DNA of 63,932 bases, filler included, from Reclinomonas americana ATCC 50394 (taxonomy: Eukaryota): NCBI GenBank assembly GCA_048213135.1. It is 15 parts of 15 records of this genome, joined end to end, with 100 filler letters (N's around TTAATTAATTAA, not from the genome) between each part and the next. Parts side by side here need not be neighbours in the genome. Positions count along the whole stretch, not along the records: positions 1 to 12,860 come from AFZH01021073.1; 14 more parts are not named here. One strand, written 5' to 3'. The number at the start of each line of letters is the position of its first letter. The first letter of the stretch is position 1. Shown piece after piece: positions 1,937 to 13,124 of this stretch. The translations under genes and the position numbers were made by a program. A model generated the notes under the pieces. It was not told the origin of the DNA. It saw only the letters and a list, made by a program, of their open reading frames with translations, and did no database searches.

Positions 1937-4900
1937 CTACAGAGGTGAACCGGAGGAATGCGATGGACCGGCAGCAGCCGACACTTCCAGCAGATGAGTA
2001 CTTGCGGACCCTGGATGTGGACTGTCGCTCCCGGATGGAAATCGGATGTTGGACAACGTCTCGAAAATCTCGAGTGCAGACGGTCTCTCCTCAGGTGTAC
2101 GCGCCTAGATCGTTGTAATAATACAAGCACGACCACAATAGCATTCAGTCAACCTGTTGATGGACCACGGCAGCAACATCGGCCATTACACACCCAGCAG
2201 CGCGTCAACAGTGGCTCCAGCTCGACTCTCACTGTGTCAGGCAGCGCATCAAAGGTGTCCACAATGTCAATCTCGTCGCCGTCACGATCGACATCAGCAT
2301 ACATGGCTGCAGCACCGGGAAACAGTCCCTCGTCACATACATAGCTTCGGATCTGATAACACATGTGTCGGTCAACAGCGTATGAAAACTCGACGAATAA
2401 ATTAGCTGCCGCACCTGATGCATGTTCGAGGGTGCCGGAAACGAGTCTCGGAGCGTCATGAGCTCCCAAAGCAATGTACCGAATGCGTATATGTCACTCT
2501 CTCTTGTCGGGAGCACTTGCCGACGCTGTTGGAGACGCCAAGTCAAGTTAAACTGTGCTCGATGTGGTCACACAATGCAGCACCCACCGATATCTGAAGA
2601 AGCTCAGGAGCCGCATACTCGGCAGTATACCCTTCGAGTCCAGTGTGCCGCATAGCAACAATGTATGTCGTTTGGACTTGCGATAAGCCAAAGTCGGTGA
2701 GCTTTGGAGTCAATCCATCAAGGAGAATATCTGGTGGGAAGCTGTCATGAAAAATAAGACAGCAATCTGGAATAAGTACTGGAACGCAACTGTCGGGTTT
2801 TATGTCTCCGTGAACGATGCCTTCTCCGTGAATATAGCTTATAGCACTGGCCAAGGCGACAGCAATGCTGAGCGAATCCGCCAGTTGATTCTGCAAGTTT
2901 GCGAACATGTACATGTAAGTGTATGTACGCCGCAAGGAACAAAACAAACACGAACCGCATCCATCAGTGCGAGGGCTGCCTCATCGCGATGCTCATCGCT
3001 GCTGCGTCGCCGTTCACGGTACTGACGCCACTCGACCATTCTTTTTCGCAGAGTATCACCACCAAGTTCCAGAATCAGTCCTGGTCCGTCCTCATCATCT
3101 TTGACAACGCCCAACAGCCGCACTATTGATGGATGTCTGTATATATACTTCAATGAGAAATATACCGATATGACGCGACGCATGTCACTTACTGAAGACG
3201 CATTAGCTGCATTGCTTCAACTTGCATCACATCCATAAGGCGCTTCTTCGATTTTTCGTCCGTTGCACGGCCCATTCTAAATCGTTTGTAGGCCACATCA
3301 GCGCCGCCAAACTTTGCACGGTATACTGTTGCCGTCGCGCCTATAGAAAGACAGCAGAGCTGAGTGCACGTAGAAAGATGTTGACCGGCAATCTACGCAA
3401 CATGAAGTCGAGCTCACCATCTCCTAGAATATTGCTGGGACTTAGGTCTCCAAAATCCAAGGCACTGAAAGGAACGCCAGACTCCCGATCCTGTAACTCG
3501 CAAAATTTCTTGAAGAATTCCTCTCGCCGAACAATCTCAGTACGCGAAGTGAATCCTGCATGCAGCACGTCTCCGTTAGCCGTGCTACTCTCGGAGACAA
3601 CGATACACAAAGATGACATCCACGTACGCTTACTGGTGTCGGCTAGCTCCAGTACAAGTCGCTCGAAGTCGGCCCCAGGGAAAAGTGCTTTGGCACAGTG
3701 CTTGATTTGCTCCACAGTGTCGCGGTATTCTGCCGCAGGCACATGCATGGAGTGTCGGTGCGCCTGTGCATTACGCAAGCCCCTAAGTTGGTCCACCATT
3801 GAGCGCTGCAACGAAACAATCAGAAACAATTCTGAAACATGCACAATGAATCAATCTCAAATCTGTAACCATGCTGGGATCGGGCAACAACAACTGTGCT
3901 TCTGCAGCGCCTGGCGGGGTGTATGCAACGAAGAGGAGCAACGAAGTCGACAGCGTCATATCAAACACGACGTGGTTAGCGATCCGAGAGAATTCGTCGA
4001 TTCGCTCTCCCAATCGTTCACCGAGATTTCTCGTATACAAATAGCCACCGCCGAACTTATAGCTGGCATCAAGAGTAGGTTAGTGGATATGCCCAGGAGC
4101 ACATACGTAGACTGGGTGGGAGTCATCTTGGAAGGAGAATATGCTCACTCACCATGGCTGTGTTGGGTACCGAACAAGGTGTGACAAAGTGCCCTGCACA
4201 TCTGCAGCCGCTCTCCCGCAAAGAGGGCGCAGGCAAAACTCGCCGCCTGTTCGACGGGACAAGTCGTCGAGTTGTCGCCGCAGAAGTGGCATGATATACC
4301 GTGGAAGAACATCACTGAAGATAGACATCAGGATGAAGCAATATCGATGTCGGACATTTGTCGCATTATTGGAATGTGGTGAATGAAGTGTTTTGTTGTG
4401 CAAAGACAGACAGAATCATTCAGCAAATGATGAGTGTGACACTGAAAGAACAGGGGAAACGCAAACTTACTCATGAGGAATCCCTTCTGTAGCGCCTGAT
4501 GAAATAATTGAGAAGGGAATCTACTTGCTCACAGCCGAAGGGCACAAATGACAAACCTTCCGAAGTTGCAGTGGAATTCTCCTGCTCGCGGAGAAATGCT
4601 GGGAGAATGCGAATTCGGCACATGCGTGCACTCAGCGACATGGATTTATGGGCATGTAACATCCCTCGACCAGCAACAACACAAACGCACCTGGCAACGC
4701 ATTTTCTGCAGCTGCACGTAGATTAAAATTGATAACCACCTTCTCCGACAACGGTACATTCGCTGGCATTGTGCCGGCGATTGTCAGATCGTGAGCGACA
4801 AGCGTGTAAGTACGTTGCCATAGCTGTTCTCACCTGGTTTACCATCCTCCAATCCAAGACTTGTTAGAGAGCAGACGTGAAGCTGTGTTGCTTGACGAAG

Positions 4901-5780
4901 CTGAACACACTCTGCCGCACTGATGCAGTTGACTATGCACATCGAGTACAGATAGCGCAGTGAAAACACATAGTGAGGCAGCAGACGCAGCGCTGGCGAC
5001 AGAAAAGATAGCGCAACATGCGACGTCCAGCGATTTCAAATTGATACGTCTCGGCCTTGTGGGAAGGTCTACCGCAGCACGAACTAAAGCCGAAGCGCCC
5101 GCGAACTCAATTCGATTGCCTGCACAAAGAAGATGGCATTCAGGAGTGTGTGCACGACAACCGTGGCAGCGCACGCACATCCAACAAACCAACAATAGTC
5201 AATTTGGTCAACAGAGGAAGCCTGGCAGCAATTTCTTGCGCTCCTTGAGCCTCTAAAAAGTTATCTGAGAACCAACAAAACGATAGTCAAACGCAGCGCA
5301 CGAAGACAACCACAGACGACGCCGAAAAGCTTTCGCACTCACACGACACATCAAGCTCAATCAGGTTGCGAAAGGTGTTGCAGATGACTTTCGCACTCTC
5401 ATGTGTGAGGCCATTGGGATTCTCGATGTCGCGCCCAGCGAGTATGAGGCGCTGCACTTTATCGCGCTCGTCTTTGTACTCTTTCACTTGGTCAATGTAC
5501 TCACAAGCACGGTCGAGGCCATCGTCTCCCAGCACTCTCCCGTTGAGCGCTGGTTGCGAAAGATCGAGCTGCACGTGCATGCAGTGGATCGTTGAGTGAT
5601 CATGAGACGAGAGCAACAAAGTGGACAGGTGGCAGTGCATAAATCTGCGTGCGATGAACAAGAGAACAGCGCAGCGCTCACCGTGTACCAGCGCACTTCA
5701 CTGCCGGCCGCGGCGCCGACGCGGAAGCAAGCATCAACAGCCTGCTCAATCTGCTGTCGGCTGGCGAGCGCTGAACCCAT
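1937..5780 (-). CDS. Multi-exon protein: N-terminal MG (myristoylation-like), RI-like LRRs, HEPN (DZIP3-like) domain, TKL-like protein kinase
   Basis: ATG 5780 (MGSALAS..). LRRs about 5568-4840 (LDLSQPALNGRVLGDDGL; LIELDVSxNFLEAQGAQEIA; LKSLDVAFNCI). FDMTL at 3965-3951 and LRNAQAH (R..H at 3775-3758). Kinase motifs after splicing: ILGDGATATVY, VAYK, HPSIVRLLG, HGDIKPDNILL, DFG, YAAPE, SDIYAFG, CWARTPEERPS. Stop TAG at 1939-1937. Confidence 0.85.
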
Positions 5781-7096: not shown

Positions 7097-7163
<67 letters not shown>

Positions 7164-7910
7164 CCTCTCTGCTTTGAAACAAAGGAACGCACCAGTGAAC
7201 GATTCCGAGGCTGTAGAAAATGATACGACAGAGGGTTGGACCGCCGTAAACACTCCCAAACACGGCTGTGAAGTTTACGTTGGTCGAGCAAAAGCCACTG
7301 AATGCAGAGCACGCTGACGACTGCGGGTTGTCGAGTATACACAAGGCTATTGCAACCATCGTAACTGATCAAAAAAGCACCAAAACATCAGCCAGCAGCA
7401 CAAAGCAACACAGAACTGAGGAATGGCGGTACTGATACCTACCAACAGGGAAAAATATCATCATCACCAACAGTCCTTGACCCGACCAAAATGCAATCCG
7501 AGATGCATGATGATAACGGCTGCAGGCAAGTTGCGGATGAAGACACGCTCAGATAGCACTTGTTTTCTCTCTCCCTTTTTCTCGCTCTCTCTCTCTCTCT
7601 CTCGCACACGCATACACACACAAAGCACACATACTCGCATTGTCGAACCTCTCACGCACACAACACAAAATGCATCTTACCTACAGCACATGAGACTCGA
7701 GCTCCTGATCACATGCGGCCGAAAGTTGCACAAGAGAGTGACCGTCGCAGCAACAATCGCCGCGGTGCTGTATGCATAAATGACTCCGAAAGCTCCCTGA
7801 GAAACGACGAACGCGGGTAAGTAAAGCAGCACAGTTTACACTCTCTCGGCGATGCAGATCGTTACCCCAGGCCACCAGCTTCCAATAGAACCCGTTTCGT
7901 CAGTCATCAT
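6192..7910 (-). CDS. Multi-exon multipass membrane protein (7TM/GPCR-like, uncertain)
   Basis: Spliced start MMTDETGSIGSWWPG|GAFGVIYAYSTAAIVAATVTLL. Further hydrophobic exons (TLCRIIFYSLGIVHW; MCASMLAVSAATAAW; GLLSVFIPVAL) and a polar C-terminal tail ending at 6192. Internal exon structure only partly resolved. Confidence 0.55.
7100..7160. repeat. (CA)n microsatellite, intronic
   Basis: About 30 CA units. Similar (CA)n/(GA)n tracts occur in many introns, e.g. 10262-10302, 39403-39450, 44640-44707, 58989-59068. Confidence 0.95.
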
Positions 7911-10065: not shown

Positions 10066-10259
10066 TTACGCCCAGATCTTGACCGTGTTGTCCCACGAGC
10101 CTGCATTTGCTTGTGTCAGTGCACGATTGTGGCAGTCTCCTTGCACAAGAGAGAGAGAGAGAACCAGAGACGAGTAGAGGATACACGGGGACAGAAGTGC
10201 GCGAGAGGCAAGAGCATTAAGAAAACGGGGACAGAATGCGTGTGTTTCGGAGAACACGA

Positions 10260-10304
<45 letters not shown>

Positions 10305-12732
10305 GAGCAGAGGATACACGGGGACAGGAGTACGGGTGTGTGGATGAATGAGTGGAAGAGAAAGACAGAGGCAAGAACATGAGGAAACGGGGAGAATGAG
10401 TGCCTCGGAGAACCAGAGAGAGTCAGCAGAGTGCGTGAGATAGGGAGATCAGGAACAGAGAAGTGATGAAAAAGACTGAGAATGAGAGAGAGAGAGAGAG
10501 AGAAAGGGAGCGAATAAGTGAGACGAATAGAGCGTGCGCGGCGACAGCGATTGAGCGGGTGTGGAAGGGAGAGAATACCGTCTCTCTCCGCTTCTCTCTC
10601 TCTCTCACACAAACACACGAGTCTACGAGATTCAAACGCACCAGTGGCCAGCGCCTGCCCATCGGACGACGTTTGCAGGCACGACACGCGGTTGTCGTGA
10701 CCGTCAAGCACCTGTGCAAGCACGAGCACATACATGAGCAACAGAAACCATTGTATACCGTTGAGGCGAGTTCTCACCTGCAAAATGGTTCCCTGCAGCA
10801 CATCCCACGCCACGGCTGGGTGGTCGTCGTAGCCGGCAAACAGCACACGGCCACTCTTGGTGAAGGCAATCTGCAGAAGGCAAAAACGAAAGCAAGTCAG
10901 AAAAGCGCACTGAAATCCTTTCAAGTCACGCGCGCCATCTCTCTCGATCTTTTTTCTTCTTCTTCTCTCCTCACACACCGCGCAGACTGACCGCGCGCGC
11001 ACGTCACATTTCTCATTTCTCTCTTCTCTCTCTCCCGCTCTCACACTCTCTCTCTGCCCCTTTCGACCCCTACTCACCGACGTCACTCCACCACGCTCAT
11101 CCTGCAACGAGTACTCCATCAACGGCCCGTCGGCACGCACGTCCCACATGCGGCACACGCCATGATCGTCGCCCGTGCCAAACGAGGTGCCATTCGGGAA
11201 GTACTGAATGCTGTTGACATCGAGGCCCTCGGGTGTCGGGTGCGGGTTCTTGAAGGTCTTGACGCAGCGGCCATTGTTGATGTCCCACAGCTTGGCCGTC
11301 GAGTCGCAAGAACCTGAGAGATAGAGAGGGAAAGGGAGTAAGCTCTCCATCTGATTCTTCCTCTCTCTCTCTCTCTCACTCATTTTCTCTCCTCTTCTGT
11401 CGCCTGCTCTCTTCCTCTCGTCGGGAGATATGTGACGAGCGACAAAGAGAGAGACTGACACTGCGAGAGAGAGACGGTAAAAACTCTCCATTTCATTCTC
11501 TCTCCTCTGTCGCCTGCTCTGTTTCCGCCTCTCTCTTTCTCTCCCTCTAAAGAAAAGAGAAGAGAGAGAGAAGAGAGAAGACGAACAGACAGAGGGAAGA
11601 GACTGGAACATTGAGAGTCAGAGAAATGGTAAAAACTCTCGAACTCATTCTCTCTCTCTCCCTCTGAAGAATAGAGAAGAGAAGAGAGAAGATGAACATG
11701 GCAGAGGGAAGAGACTAAAACATCGAGAGAGAGAGAGAGAAAGGGTAAAAGCTCTCCGCCGCATTCTCTCTCCTCTGTCGCCTGCTCTGTTTCCGCCTCT
11801 GTCTTTCTCTCCCTCTAAAGAAAAGAGAAGAGAGAAGACGAACACGACAGGGAGACAGAGAAATGGTAAAACTCTCCAACTCATTCTCTCTCTCACTCCC
11901 TCTCTCTCTCCCTCCGAAGAAAAGAGAAAGAGAAGAGAGAAGATGCACACGACAGGTGAGAGACTAAAACATCGAGAGAGAAAGGGAGTAGGCTCTCAAT
12001 CTGACTCCCATTCTCTCTCCTCTATCGCCTGCTCTGTTTCCGCCTCTCTCTTTCCTTCTCTCTTTCTTTCTCTCTCCCTCTTTCTCTCTCTCTCTCTGGA
12101 TGACTCACCCGAGATAAAGTTGGTGGCAGCCGGCTCCTCCACCGACACGCACATCACGTCGCCACCGTGACCAATAAACTTGCCGCGCACTTCGCCCGTC
12201 TCCACATCCCACAGGATGCACGTCATGTCGCCGGAGCTCGTCAGAATGTACCTATGTGGACAGTGAGGAACTAGTGACGGCCGACGACAGGTGCAGGTCC
12301 ACCACACAACTTGTCGATAATGAAGCGGCAGCACGAAATGTAGCCCGTGTGGTGCGCCAGTTCACGCGCCGGCTTGAGCGGGGCGTCGCGGACGCGCAGC
12401 TGGAACACGCTGCAGTGGTTGTCTGCGTTCGGGAGGTAGATGAGAGGAGAGGGATGGATAAAGGAGGGGAGGGGATAGAAACGCACCCAGTCCACCACAC
12501 GCGACCAAGTTTCCGGACGGCGAGTACGCGCACGTCATCACCCACACCGAGCGCAGCGGAATGTGATTGATCTTGTACGTCGTGAACGCGTTCCACACCA
12601 ACATCTGACCAGCGAGGGACAGTGAGCGCACGGCACAGCAGACAATCGCTCACAAACCAACGGAACCTTGCCGTCTTGCGACGCAGAGACCAAGCCGCGA
12701 GAGTCGTTCGGTGCCCAGTGCAATGCGTACAC
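10066..12732 (-). CDS. GNB: Heterotrimeric G-protein beta subunit (5' end lost in gap)
   Basis: Spliced sequence carries hallmark G-beta motifs: [84 protein letters not shown]. Confidence 0.96.
11320..12100. repeat. Degenerate intronic tandem duplication of CT/GA-rich blocks
   Basis: The block ..cattctctctcctctgtcgcctgctctgtttccgcctct.. recurs about 4 times inside one G-beta intron. Similar intronic duplications occur at about 47030-47500 and 49800-50500. Confidence 0.75.
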
Positions 12733-12791
12733 CTGCGGAGGAGGGGGGGGGGGGGGGGGGGGGAGAGGAGGGCGTGGGAGAGAGAGAGTAC

Positions 12792-12860
<69 letters not shown>

Positions 12861-12960
12861 NNNNNNNNNNNNNNNNNNNNNNNNNNNNNNNNNNNNNNNN
12901 NNNNTTAATTAATTAANNNNNNNNNNNNNNNNNNNNNNNNNNNNNNNNNNNNNNNNNNNN
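12861..12960. other. Artificial 100-bp spacer N44-TTAATTAATTAA-N44 (first of 14)
   Basis: Identical spacers start at 12861, 17231, 19169, 21299, 25621, 28954, 36792, 40058, 44819, 47721, 51521, 58866, 60568 and 62471. The 12-mer places stops in all six frames. Confidence 0.98.
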
Positions 12961-13124
12961 CCTCTCTCCTCTCTCCTCCCTCCTCTCTCCTCTCTCCTCT
13001 CTCCTCCCCTCTCTCCCTCCTCTCCCTCTCTCCCTCTCTCCCCTTCCTCCTGCCCCCTTCCTCTCGCCCCCTTCTCCTTCTCCCTCATTCTCCTTCTCCC
13101 TCATTCTCCTCATCTCCCCACCAG

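Follow-up and report, generated by a model that had tools for sequence, protein, structure and literature searches.

RNase L and IRE1 join a sensor (an ankyrin or a luminal domain) to a kinase or pseudokinase and a C-terminal KEN-type HEPN RNase in the order sensor, kinase, KEN, with an expected logic in which ligand-driven pairing switches on the RNase. Here we describe a gene of the protist Reclinomonas americana ATCC 50394 (GenBank assembly GCA_048213135.1), located on the minus strand at positions 5780-1937 of the 63,932-nucleotide (nt) stretch of joined genome parts that was analysed (the window; all coordinates are window positions), which has in common with these proteins a sensor of repeat or ligand type, the fold of a protein kinase and, should our reading hold, a HEPN RNase with an R-x4-H motif, and in which the order is sensor, HEPN-like, kinase. 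In particular, we tentatively read the gene as encoding leucine-rich repeats (LRRs), a divergent HEPN-type helical module and a TKL-type kinase in one soluble protein of ~804 amino acids (aa), with an RNase L/IRE1-like mode of working. What is alike is the inventory of domains and not their ancestry: the kinase is closest to the TK/TKL type and not to the IRE1/RNase L branch, the sensor is an LRR and not an ankyrin or luminal domain, and Pfam scans, which throughout covered single exons and contiguous frames, gave no match to the KEN family, the kinase being followed by only ~50 residues of low-complexity tail before the stop and not by KEN.

Other described proteins share some of these parts. 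In Table 1 of Anantharaman et al. 2013 (PMC3710099), the DZIP3/hRUL138-type and CXorf38 (DUF4559)-type HEPN domains found in animals and Capsaspora have repeat modules and modules of immune type as fusion partners, LRRs among them, but no kinase is given for these families. The ESM neighbours of exon 10, which carries the R-x4-H motif of the present gene, include DUF4559 and HEPN_DZIP3 clusters, below the threshold for a lead, whereas Pfam families PF18738 and PF15112 are unmatched on any exon. Swt1-like HEPN domains (PF18731; bacterial, Ava_2192-type) have the same RNxxAH helix end, short loop and next helix with an aromatic-R pair, and align over ~28 residues, whereas the rest of the middle domain does not align. 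ROCO/LRRK proteins, plant LRR receptor kinases and non-RD immune kinases share LRRs and a TKL-type kinase with the present gene, which differs from such LRR-kinases in lacking a Roc-COR GTPase, a transmembrane segment and an extracellular LRR, and in having a 200-residue helical domain between the LRRs and the kinase. MLKL, which comprises an N-terminal helical bundle without R-x4-H, a brace and a kinase-like domain, is alike in architecture only, in that a helical domain with a helical linker directly precedes the kinase fold; it differs in that the kinase of the present gene looks catalytically competent. A sequence-only reading of the window, which had proposed an LRR, HEPN-like RNase and kinase in a single chain, did not recognise this domain order as described. 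Full-text literature searching turned up no account of an LRR-HEPN-kinase architecture in a eukaryote among the results listed; LRR, HEPN-like, kinase is a plausible new domain order.

The window is intron-dense eukaryotic DNA, all-frame translation of positions 6100-1700 giving short coding blocks between GT..AG introns, and the locus is a real multi-exon eukaryotic gene. Exons were joined by coordinates in a script. The 3′ part, which begins at 4314 and closes with the TAG at 1939-1937, comprises 11 exons separated by ten GT..AG introns of 56-90 nt and gives one stop-free frame of 557 aa, covering the helical region and the kinase; the 5′ part, 5780-4691, comprises 6 exons with introns of 70-113 nt and gives a stop-free spliced frame of 224 aa, covering the LRRs. 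The best stop-free full model has ~19 exons and a coding sequence of 2415 nt for 804 aa, arranged as follows.

5682..5780, minus strand: exon 1, with the ATG at 5780 and MGSALAS at 5780-5760 (residues 1-33)
5568-5343, 5264-5190, 5119-5018, 4932-4834 and 4762-4691, minus strand: exons 2-6, five RI-like LRRs (residues 34-224)
4315..4690, minus strand: junction, in the best model intron 4690-4599, exon 7a 4598-4557, intron 4556-4496, exon 7b 4495-4471 and intron 4470-4315
4314-4153 and 4062-3870, minus strand: exons 8 and 9, N-terminal half of the helical middle domain (residues ~247-365), with DEFSR at 3998-3984 and FDMTLSTSLL at 3965-3936
3634..3805, minus strand: exon 10, HEPN-like motif exon (residues 366-423), with RNAQAH (R376..H381) at 3775-3758, then RHSMHVPAAEY
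3418..3555, minus strand: exon 11, linker and start of the kinase N-lobe (ILGDG), residues 423-469
3340-3193, 3136-2956, 2890-2791, 2730-2588, 2525-2415, 2352-2194 and 2104-1937, minus strand: exons 12-18, kinase domain and C-terminal tail, with the TAG at 1939-1937

The MG start, FDMTLSTSLL, RNAQAH and the kinase Lys, HGD..N, DFG and APE motifs all lie on the minus strand at the positions that the sequence-only reading had assigned to them. The ATG at 5780 is the first of an open frame spanning 5858-5484, the 500 nt upstream of it contain no clear coding signal, and a start there is plausible from the sequence. The donors of the model vary: GTTGCG occurs in 2 of its 18 introns (5017 and 2790), both following exons without a terminal G, and four further introns begin with GTT, namely GTTTGT twice, GTTACA and GTTCGT (5189, 4556, 3869 and 2955).

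The kinase is TK/TKL-like and, as judged by its intact catalytic residues, active-looking. Specifically, the G-loop (3424-3324), VAYK (3296-3285), the intron-split HGDIKPDN (2812-2729), TDFGLS (2698-2681) and APE (2611-2603) place all catalytic residues in frame, and Pfam Pkinase matches one exon-bearing frame above its cut-off (E 1e-8; 35.3 bits vs 31.7), so that the kinase with Lys, HGD..N, DFG and APE intact that had been proposed stands. PK_Tyr_Ser-Thr matches two exon-bearing frames just under its cut-off. In searches of the PDB, the frame with the catalytic loop matched 22 sequences at E up to 0.001, PDK1 first, and the exon with subdomain IX matched 303 at E up to 0.1, with EGFR, ROS, CTR1, FGFR and MET at the top. 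The catalytic loop has HGD in place of HRD, which makes this a 'non-RD' kinase; such loops are typical of pattern-recognition and immune receptor kinases.

The LRR part is credible at the level of sequence. Five RI-like repeats can be recognised by eye in residues 34-224 as tandem units of ~28 residues fitting LxxLxLxxNxIxxxGaxxL, and a strict repeat pattern, written after the sequence had been viewed, matched the 224 residues three times, a count reached in 4 of 5000 shuffles. Pfam gave no match to an LRR family on single exons, and the PDB yielded nothing beyond one leucine-rich repeat protein, matched weakly (E 0.18); the RI-like LRR N-terminus proposed earlier draws its support from the repeats and the pattern count and not from the family searches. 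The MGSALAS start fits the myristoylation pattern G-x-x-x-[STAGCN], but the protein has no transmembrane segment (highest 19-residue hydropathy 1.49), so that a tether to the membrane, as proposed earlier, would have to come from the MG start.

The case for a HEPN-type module centres on exon 10. As described by Anantharaman et al. 2013 (PMC3710099), a HEPN domain is a four-helix bundle in which a helix that leads into a loop bears an R-x4-6-H motif at its C-terminal end, with a polar residue (N/D/H), typically N, after the R, and often with an acidic residue in helix 2. RNAQAH (R376-N-A-Q-A-H381) is an R-x4-6-H motif with the polar N after the R. AlphaFold on exon 10 alone, from a single sequence, predicts helices at residues 3-17, 24-41 and 47-56 (pLDDT 69) and puts R11 and H16 in the C-terminal end of helix 3-17, before a 6-residue loop at 18-23, which is the placement given for HEPN domains in PMC3710099; this is a fragment model, and its helix numbering relative to HEPN is assumed. 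AlphaFold on exon 9 alone predicts one long helix, residues 6-47 (mean pLDDT 81), and the helical region that had been proposed between the LRRs and the kinase is thus borne out by predictions for both exons singly. The exon 9 helix contains DEFSR (D-x3-R, 3998-3984), a possible counterpart of the acidic residue of helix 2; the canonical form there is typically E-x3-[KR], with E, and no alignment supports equating the two. Exon 9 also carries FDMTLSTSLL, and FD-x-TL is a feature of DZIP3-type HEPN domains, which we use as a lead only.

Profile comparison points in the same direction for a short segment. In cyanobacterial genomes a Swt1-type HEPN family was present in 2 of 5 at first and subsequently in 41 of 401, and 32 matches with a locus among 47 match rows (one match being in both lists) yielded a local profile of what is a narrow cyanobacterial Swt1 family; this profile and hhalign were applied to the spliced middle domain. 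The spliced domain scored 6.6 bits against the local profile (best of 1000 shuffles, 4.7), with an alignment covering only residues 117-142, and the motif together with the part that follows it scored 9.1 bits, a value as high being reached in 0 of 2000 shuffles. In Pfam, the only HEPN-family match was likewise to HEPN_Swt1, exon 10 residues 1-21 aligning to profile positions 76-96 of 115. A search of ESM clusters with exon 10 returned DUF4559 at 0.86, HEPN_DZIP3 at 0.84 and HEPN_Swt1 at 0.79, all under the 0.9 threshold for a lead, the first two families being carried by 16% and 10% of the members of their respective clusters; three of the five named clusters among the matches listed are, we presume, HEPN families. 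With exon 9, the ESM search found no cluster with a family, and PADLOC (run, like NCBIfam, on exons 8-11) gave one weak match to a model of unknown function (E 0.012). On motif and secondary-structure grounds alone, the HEPN reading is plausible.

A different frame with a similar pattern emerged from the pattern count: at ~19900 (plus strand, frame 1), in contiguous sequence, hD-x-T-L is followed 30 residues on by R-N-x4-H (VDETL...RRNPGTVAH).

Under the reading that we tentatively favour, the N-terminus would possibly be N-myristoylated in a soluble protein, and the middle domain would be an all-helical, ~200-residue, very divergent HEPN-type module whose third-from-last helix ends in R-N-A-Q-A-H. 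The LRRs would bind a ligand or partner, binding would pair two chains via the helical domain, and pairing would permit trans-autophosphorylation by the kinase; if R and H are catalytic, the paired chains would also form a composite RNase site that cuts RNA. The working would be like that of RNase L and IRE1, independently assembled and with the HEPN-like part ahead of the kinase. We put the HEPN fold itself at somewhat less than an even chance, given the motif and the fragment models, and consider an active RNase rather unlikely.

The results that weigh against this reading concern the extent of the resemblance, the frequency of the motif, relatives and the gene model. Specifically, no HEPN family was matched significantly by Pfam on single exons, by the local Swt1 profile or by hhalign, which gave a probability of 8.8% over 29 columns against the Swt1 family. 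The HEPN_Swt1 match in Pfam, at E 0.18, reaches 12.5 bits where the cut-off is 27.5. HEPN_DZIP3 (PF18738), the type to which the sequence-only reading had likened the region, gave no match with E ≤ 10 on exon 8, 9 or 10 or on any frame containing one of these; exons 8-9 matched no Pfam or NCBIfam family. The scores of the pieces flanking the motif against the Swt1 profile were equalled or beaten by 187 of 2000 shuffles for residues 1-116, 105 of 2000 for exon 9 and 503 of 2000 for the part after the motif, and with the flanks at shuffle level only ~28 residues resemble a known HEPN family. Translated in six frames, the window (127,860 residues) contains 64 instances of the generic motif R[NDH]x3H, or about one per 2000 residues (~0.11 per 215 aa). 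Foldseek with the exon 10 fragment model returned no match.

The search for relatives adds to these points. Exhaustive HMMER with the exon 10-11 frame against 1.84 billion representatives found no homologue; word-index searches of the 'longer' length class of proteins gave nothing for the exon 10-11 frame, for exon 10 by itself or for a kinase frame; a metagenome scan with exon 10 gave 593 pattern matches, none of them related; and neither a viral scan with exon 9 nor a genome-contig scan with exon 10 gave a related sequence. A kinase frame found 210 related kinases in the metagenome scan, of which 80 loci were kept; when these loci (692,406 nt) were compared with the spliced middle domain by tblastn, 16 weak segments emerged, the best at E 0.82, and no credible relative. 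Finally, the single chain requires a predicted exon of just 25 nt and two introns, of 92 and of 156 nt, against 56-113 nt for the other introns of the gene.

Some candidate matches were rejected. A HMMER match at E 6.2e-4 is a 676-aa tandem-repeat protein that matches the linker exon in 8 stretches, a case of repeat inflation; one tblastn segment contains LRNARSH in surroundings that do not look protein-like; the single locus from the viral scan with exon 10 covers residues 32-56 only, on an exact 8-mer seed, and not the motif; and a PDB search with exon 10 gave only nsp1 matches at chance level. A look-up found no look-alike stretches for the exon 10-11 frame or exon 9. HEPN_DZIP3 was matched in 0 of the 401 cyanobacterial genomes; as the controls gave no signal either, this count is uninformative on the family.

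The junction between the LRR part and the helical-kinase part was analysed with splice-site matrices built from the gene's own 15 secure introns. The best acceptor after exon 6 (donor 4690) is 4598, and the unspliced frame from there meets a TGA at 4473-4471, which directly precedes a GTAAGT donor. The coding score of this frame is +0.41 per codon over the first 13 codons (4598-4557) and +0.16 per codon over the 41 codons read through to the TGA; alternative frames of the junction score negative, and the 100 nt before exon 8 (4415-4315) score -0.21 per codon. Entry into exon 8 needs two bases carried over, and the exon 8 acceptor is the strongest in the region, which, together with the non-coding-like 100 nt ahead of it, argues that exon 8 is entered by splicing and not from its own ATG at 4329. 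The best chain, with exons of 42 and 25 nt, keeps the frame stop-free and uses donors scoring 7.5 (4690), 6.7 (4556) and 5.2 (4470) and acceptors scoring 5.0 (4598), 4.3 (4495) and 7.5 (4314). Across 4760-4314 there are 6623 different stop-free chains, and an open chain by itself therefore proves nothing. Two other solutions were discarded: a junction exon at 4581/4584-4533 with a GTGAGC donor (coding score -0.2 per codon, weak acceptors), and a reading of exons 8 and 9 in frame 0, where coding scores are negative and a stop lies at 3959-3957. The earlier claim of one spliced frame holds within 4314-1937 and within 5780-4691, each of which is stop-free, but is not confirmed for the link across 4690-4315, which is ambiguous and whose obvious reading meets the TGA. 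From the sequence, a single gene encoding a single chain is nevertheless likely.

If the single chain is accepted, the middle domain may, as a serious alternative that nonetheless falls well short of an even chance, be a lineage-specific helical regulatory or dimerisation domain that is not HEPN, with an R-x4-H arising by chance and no RNase activity, and working like the helical bundle and brace of MLKL or like the N-terminal extensions of other TKL kinases. Such a domain would account for profile scores that are all at chance level outside the 28-residue motif region, for the absence of HEPN_DZIP3 on both domain halves and of any Foldseek match, and for a motif whose generic form is expected ~0.11 times in 215 residues. 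It accounts less well for the specific form RNxxAH, which occurs once in the six-frame window, at 3775-3758, and which coincides exactly with the end of a helix, the next elements being a loop and a helix that opens with xxEYR, the same arrangement as in bacterial Swt1-type domains (...RNxWAH......DDxYR); nor would it predict that the named ESM neighbours are HEPN families.

The junction bears on whether there is a single chain at all. Two transcription units or isoforms, an LRR-only product ending at the TGA and a helical-kinase product starting from about exon 8, with the single chain absent or a minor splice form, are suggested by the coding-like 41-codon frame that runs from the best acceptor into that TGA, by the 25-nt exon that the stop-free alternative needs and by an in-frame ATG (4329) 5 codons upstream of exon 8. 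We regard this arrangement as improbable, however: only ~140 nt lie between the TGA and the ATG, which leaves little room for a 3′ end and a promoter, the stretch before exon 8 is non-coding-like and ends in the best acceptor of the region, and a chain that includes 4598-4557 and 4495-4471 relies on good splice sites and stays in frame. The same TGA could instead mark a disrupted exon in a decaying or unexpressed gene copy, which would also fit the retroelement-like frame adjoining the 3′ end of the gene and the lack of homologues found; but 17 of the 19 model exons are in frame, stop-free and bounded by canonical splice sites, the catalytic residues of the kinase are all intact and coding scores are positive throughout, and decay appears very improbable. 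With regard to isoforms, skipping donor 4556 would yield an LRR-only protein of ~266 residues ending at the TGA, and alternative splicing could give such a truncated, decoy-like form.

The present gene is probably one member of a lineage-specific sensor-kinase gene set in this protist. A wider reading, in which the protist has a family of single-chain sensors of innate-immune type, with a cassette of a HEPN RNase and then an active kinase joined to interchangeable repeat sensors (LRRs here), as an independent counterpart of RNase L and IRE1 that has the RNase ahead of the kinase and in which ligand-induced pairing triggers RNA cleavage and phosphorylation together, is in our view unlikely. If the middle domain is a working HEPN RNase, a sensor-RNase-kinase protein would have been built independently of RNase L and IRE1; the combination of repeat sensor, kinase and HEPN nuclease would then be a recurrent solution in eukaryotic defence or stress signalling, and a protist would join the animals for which HEPN-LRR fusions have so far been listed, the kinase being a new fusion partner. 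Should the domain not be HEPN, the gene would add to the lineage-specific LRR-kinases and be of modest interest.

Neighbouring sequence includes, at 889-1845 on the plus strand, a 318-residue open frame that converges on the 3′ end of the gene and matches zf-RVT at E 0.0074 (17.4 bits against a cut-off of 27.5); it is probably a retroelement remnant, to judge from this match. A long GT/CA dinucleotide microsatellite at ~7100-7220 gives poly-(CV) and poly-(TH) frames. Further along, frames with WD40/G-beta-like peptides (for instance ...AKLWDI..., ...CRMWDV..., ...GHDNRVSCL...) can be seen by eye on the minus strand at ~10200-12900, broken by long low-complexity stretches of GA/CT type, and a run of N lies at ~12860-12965.

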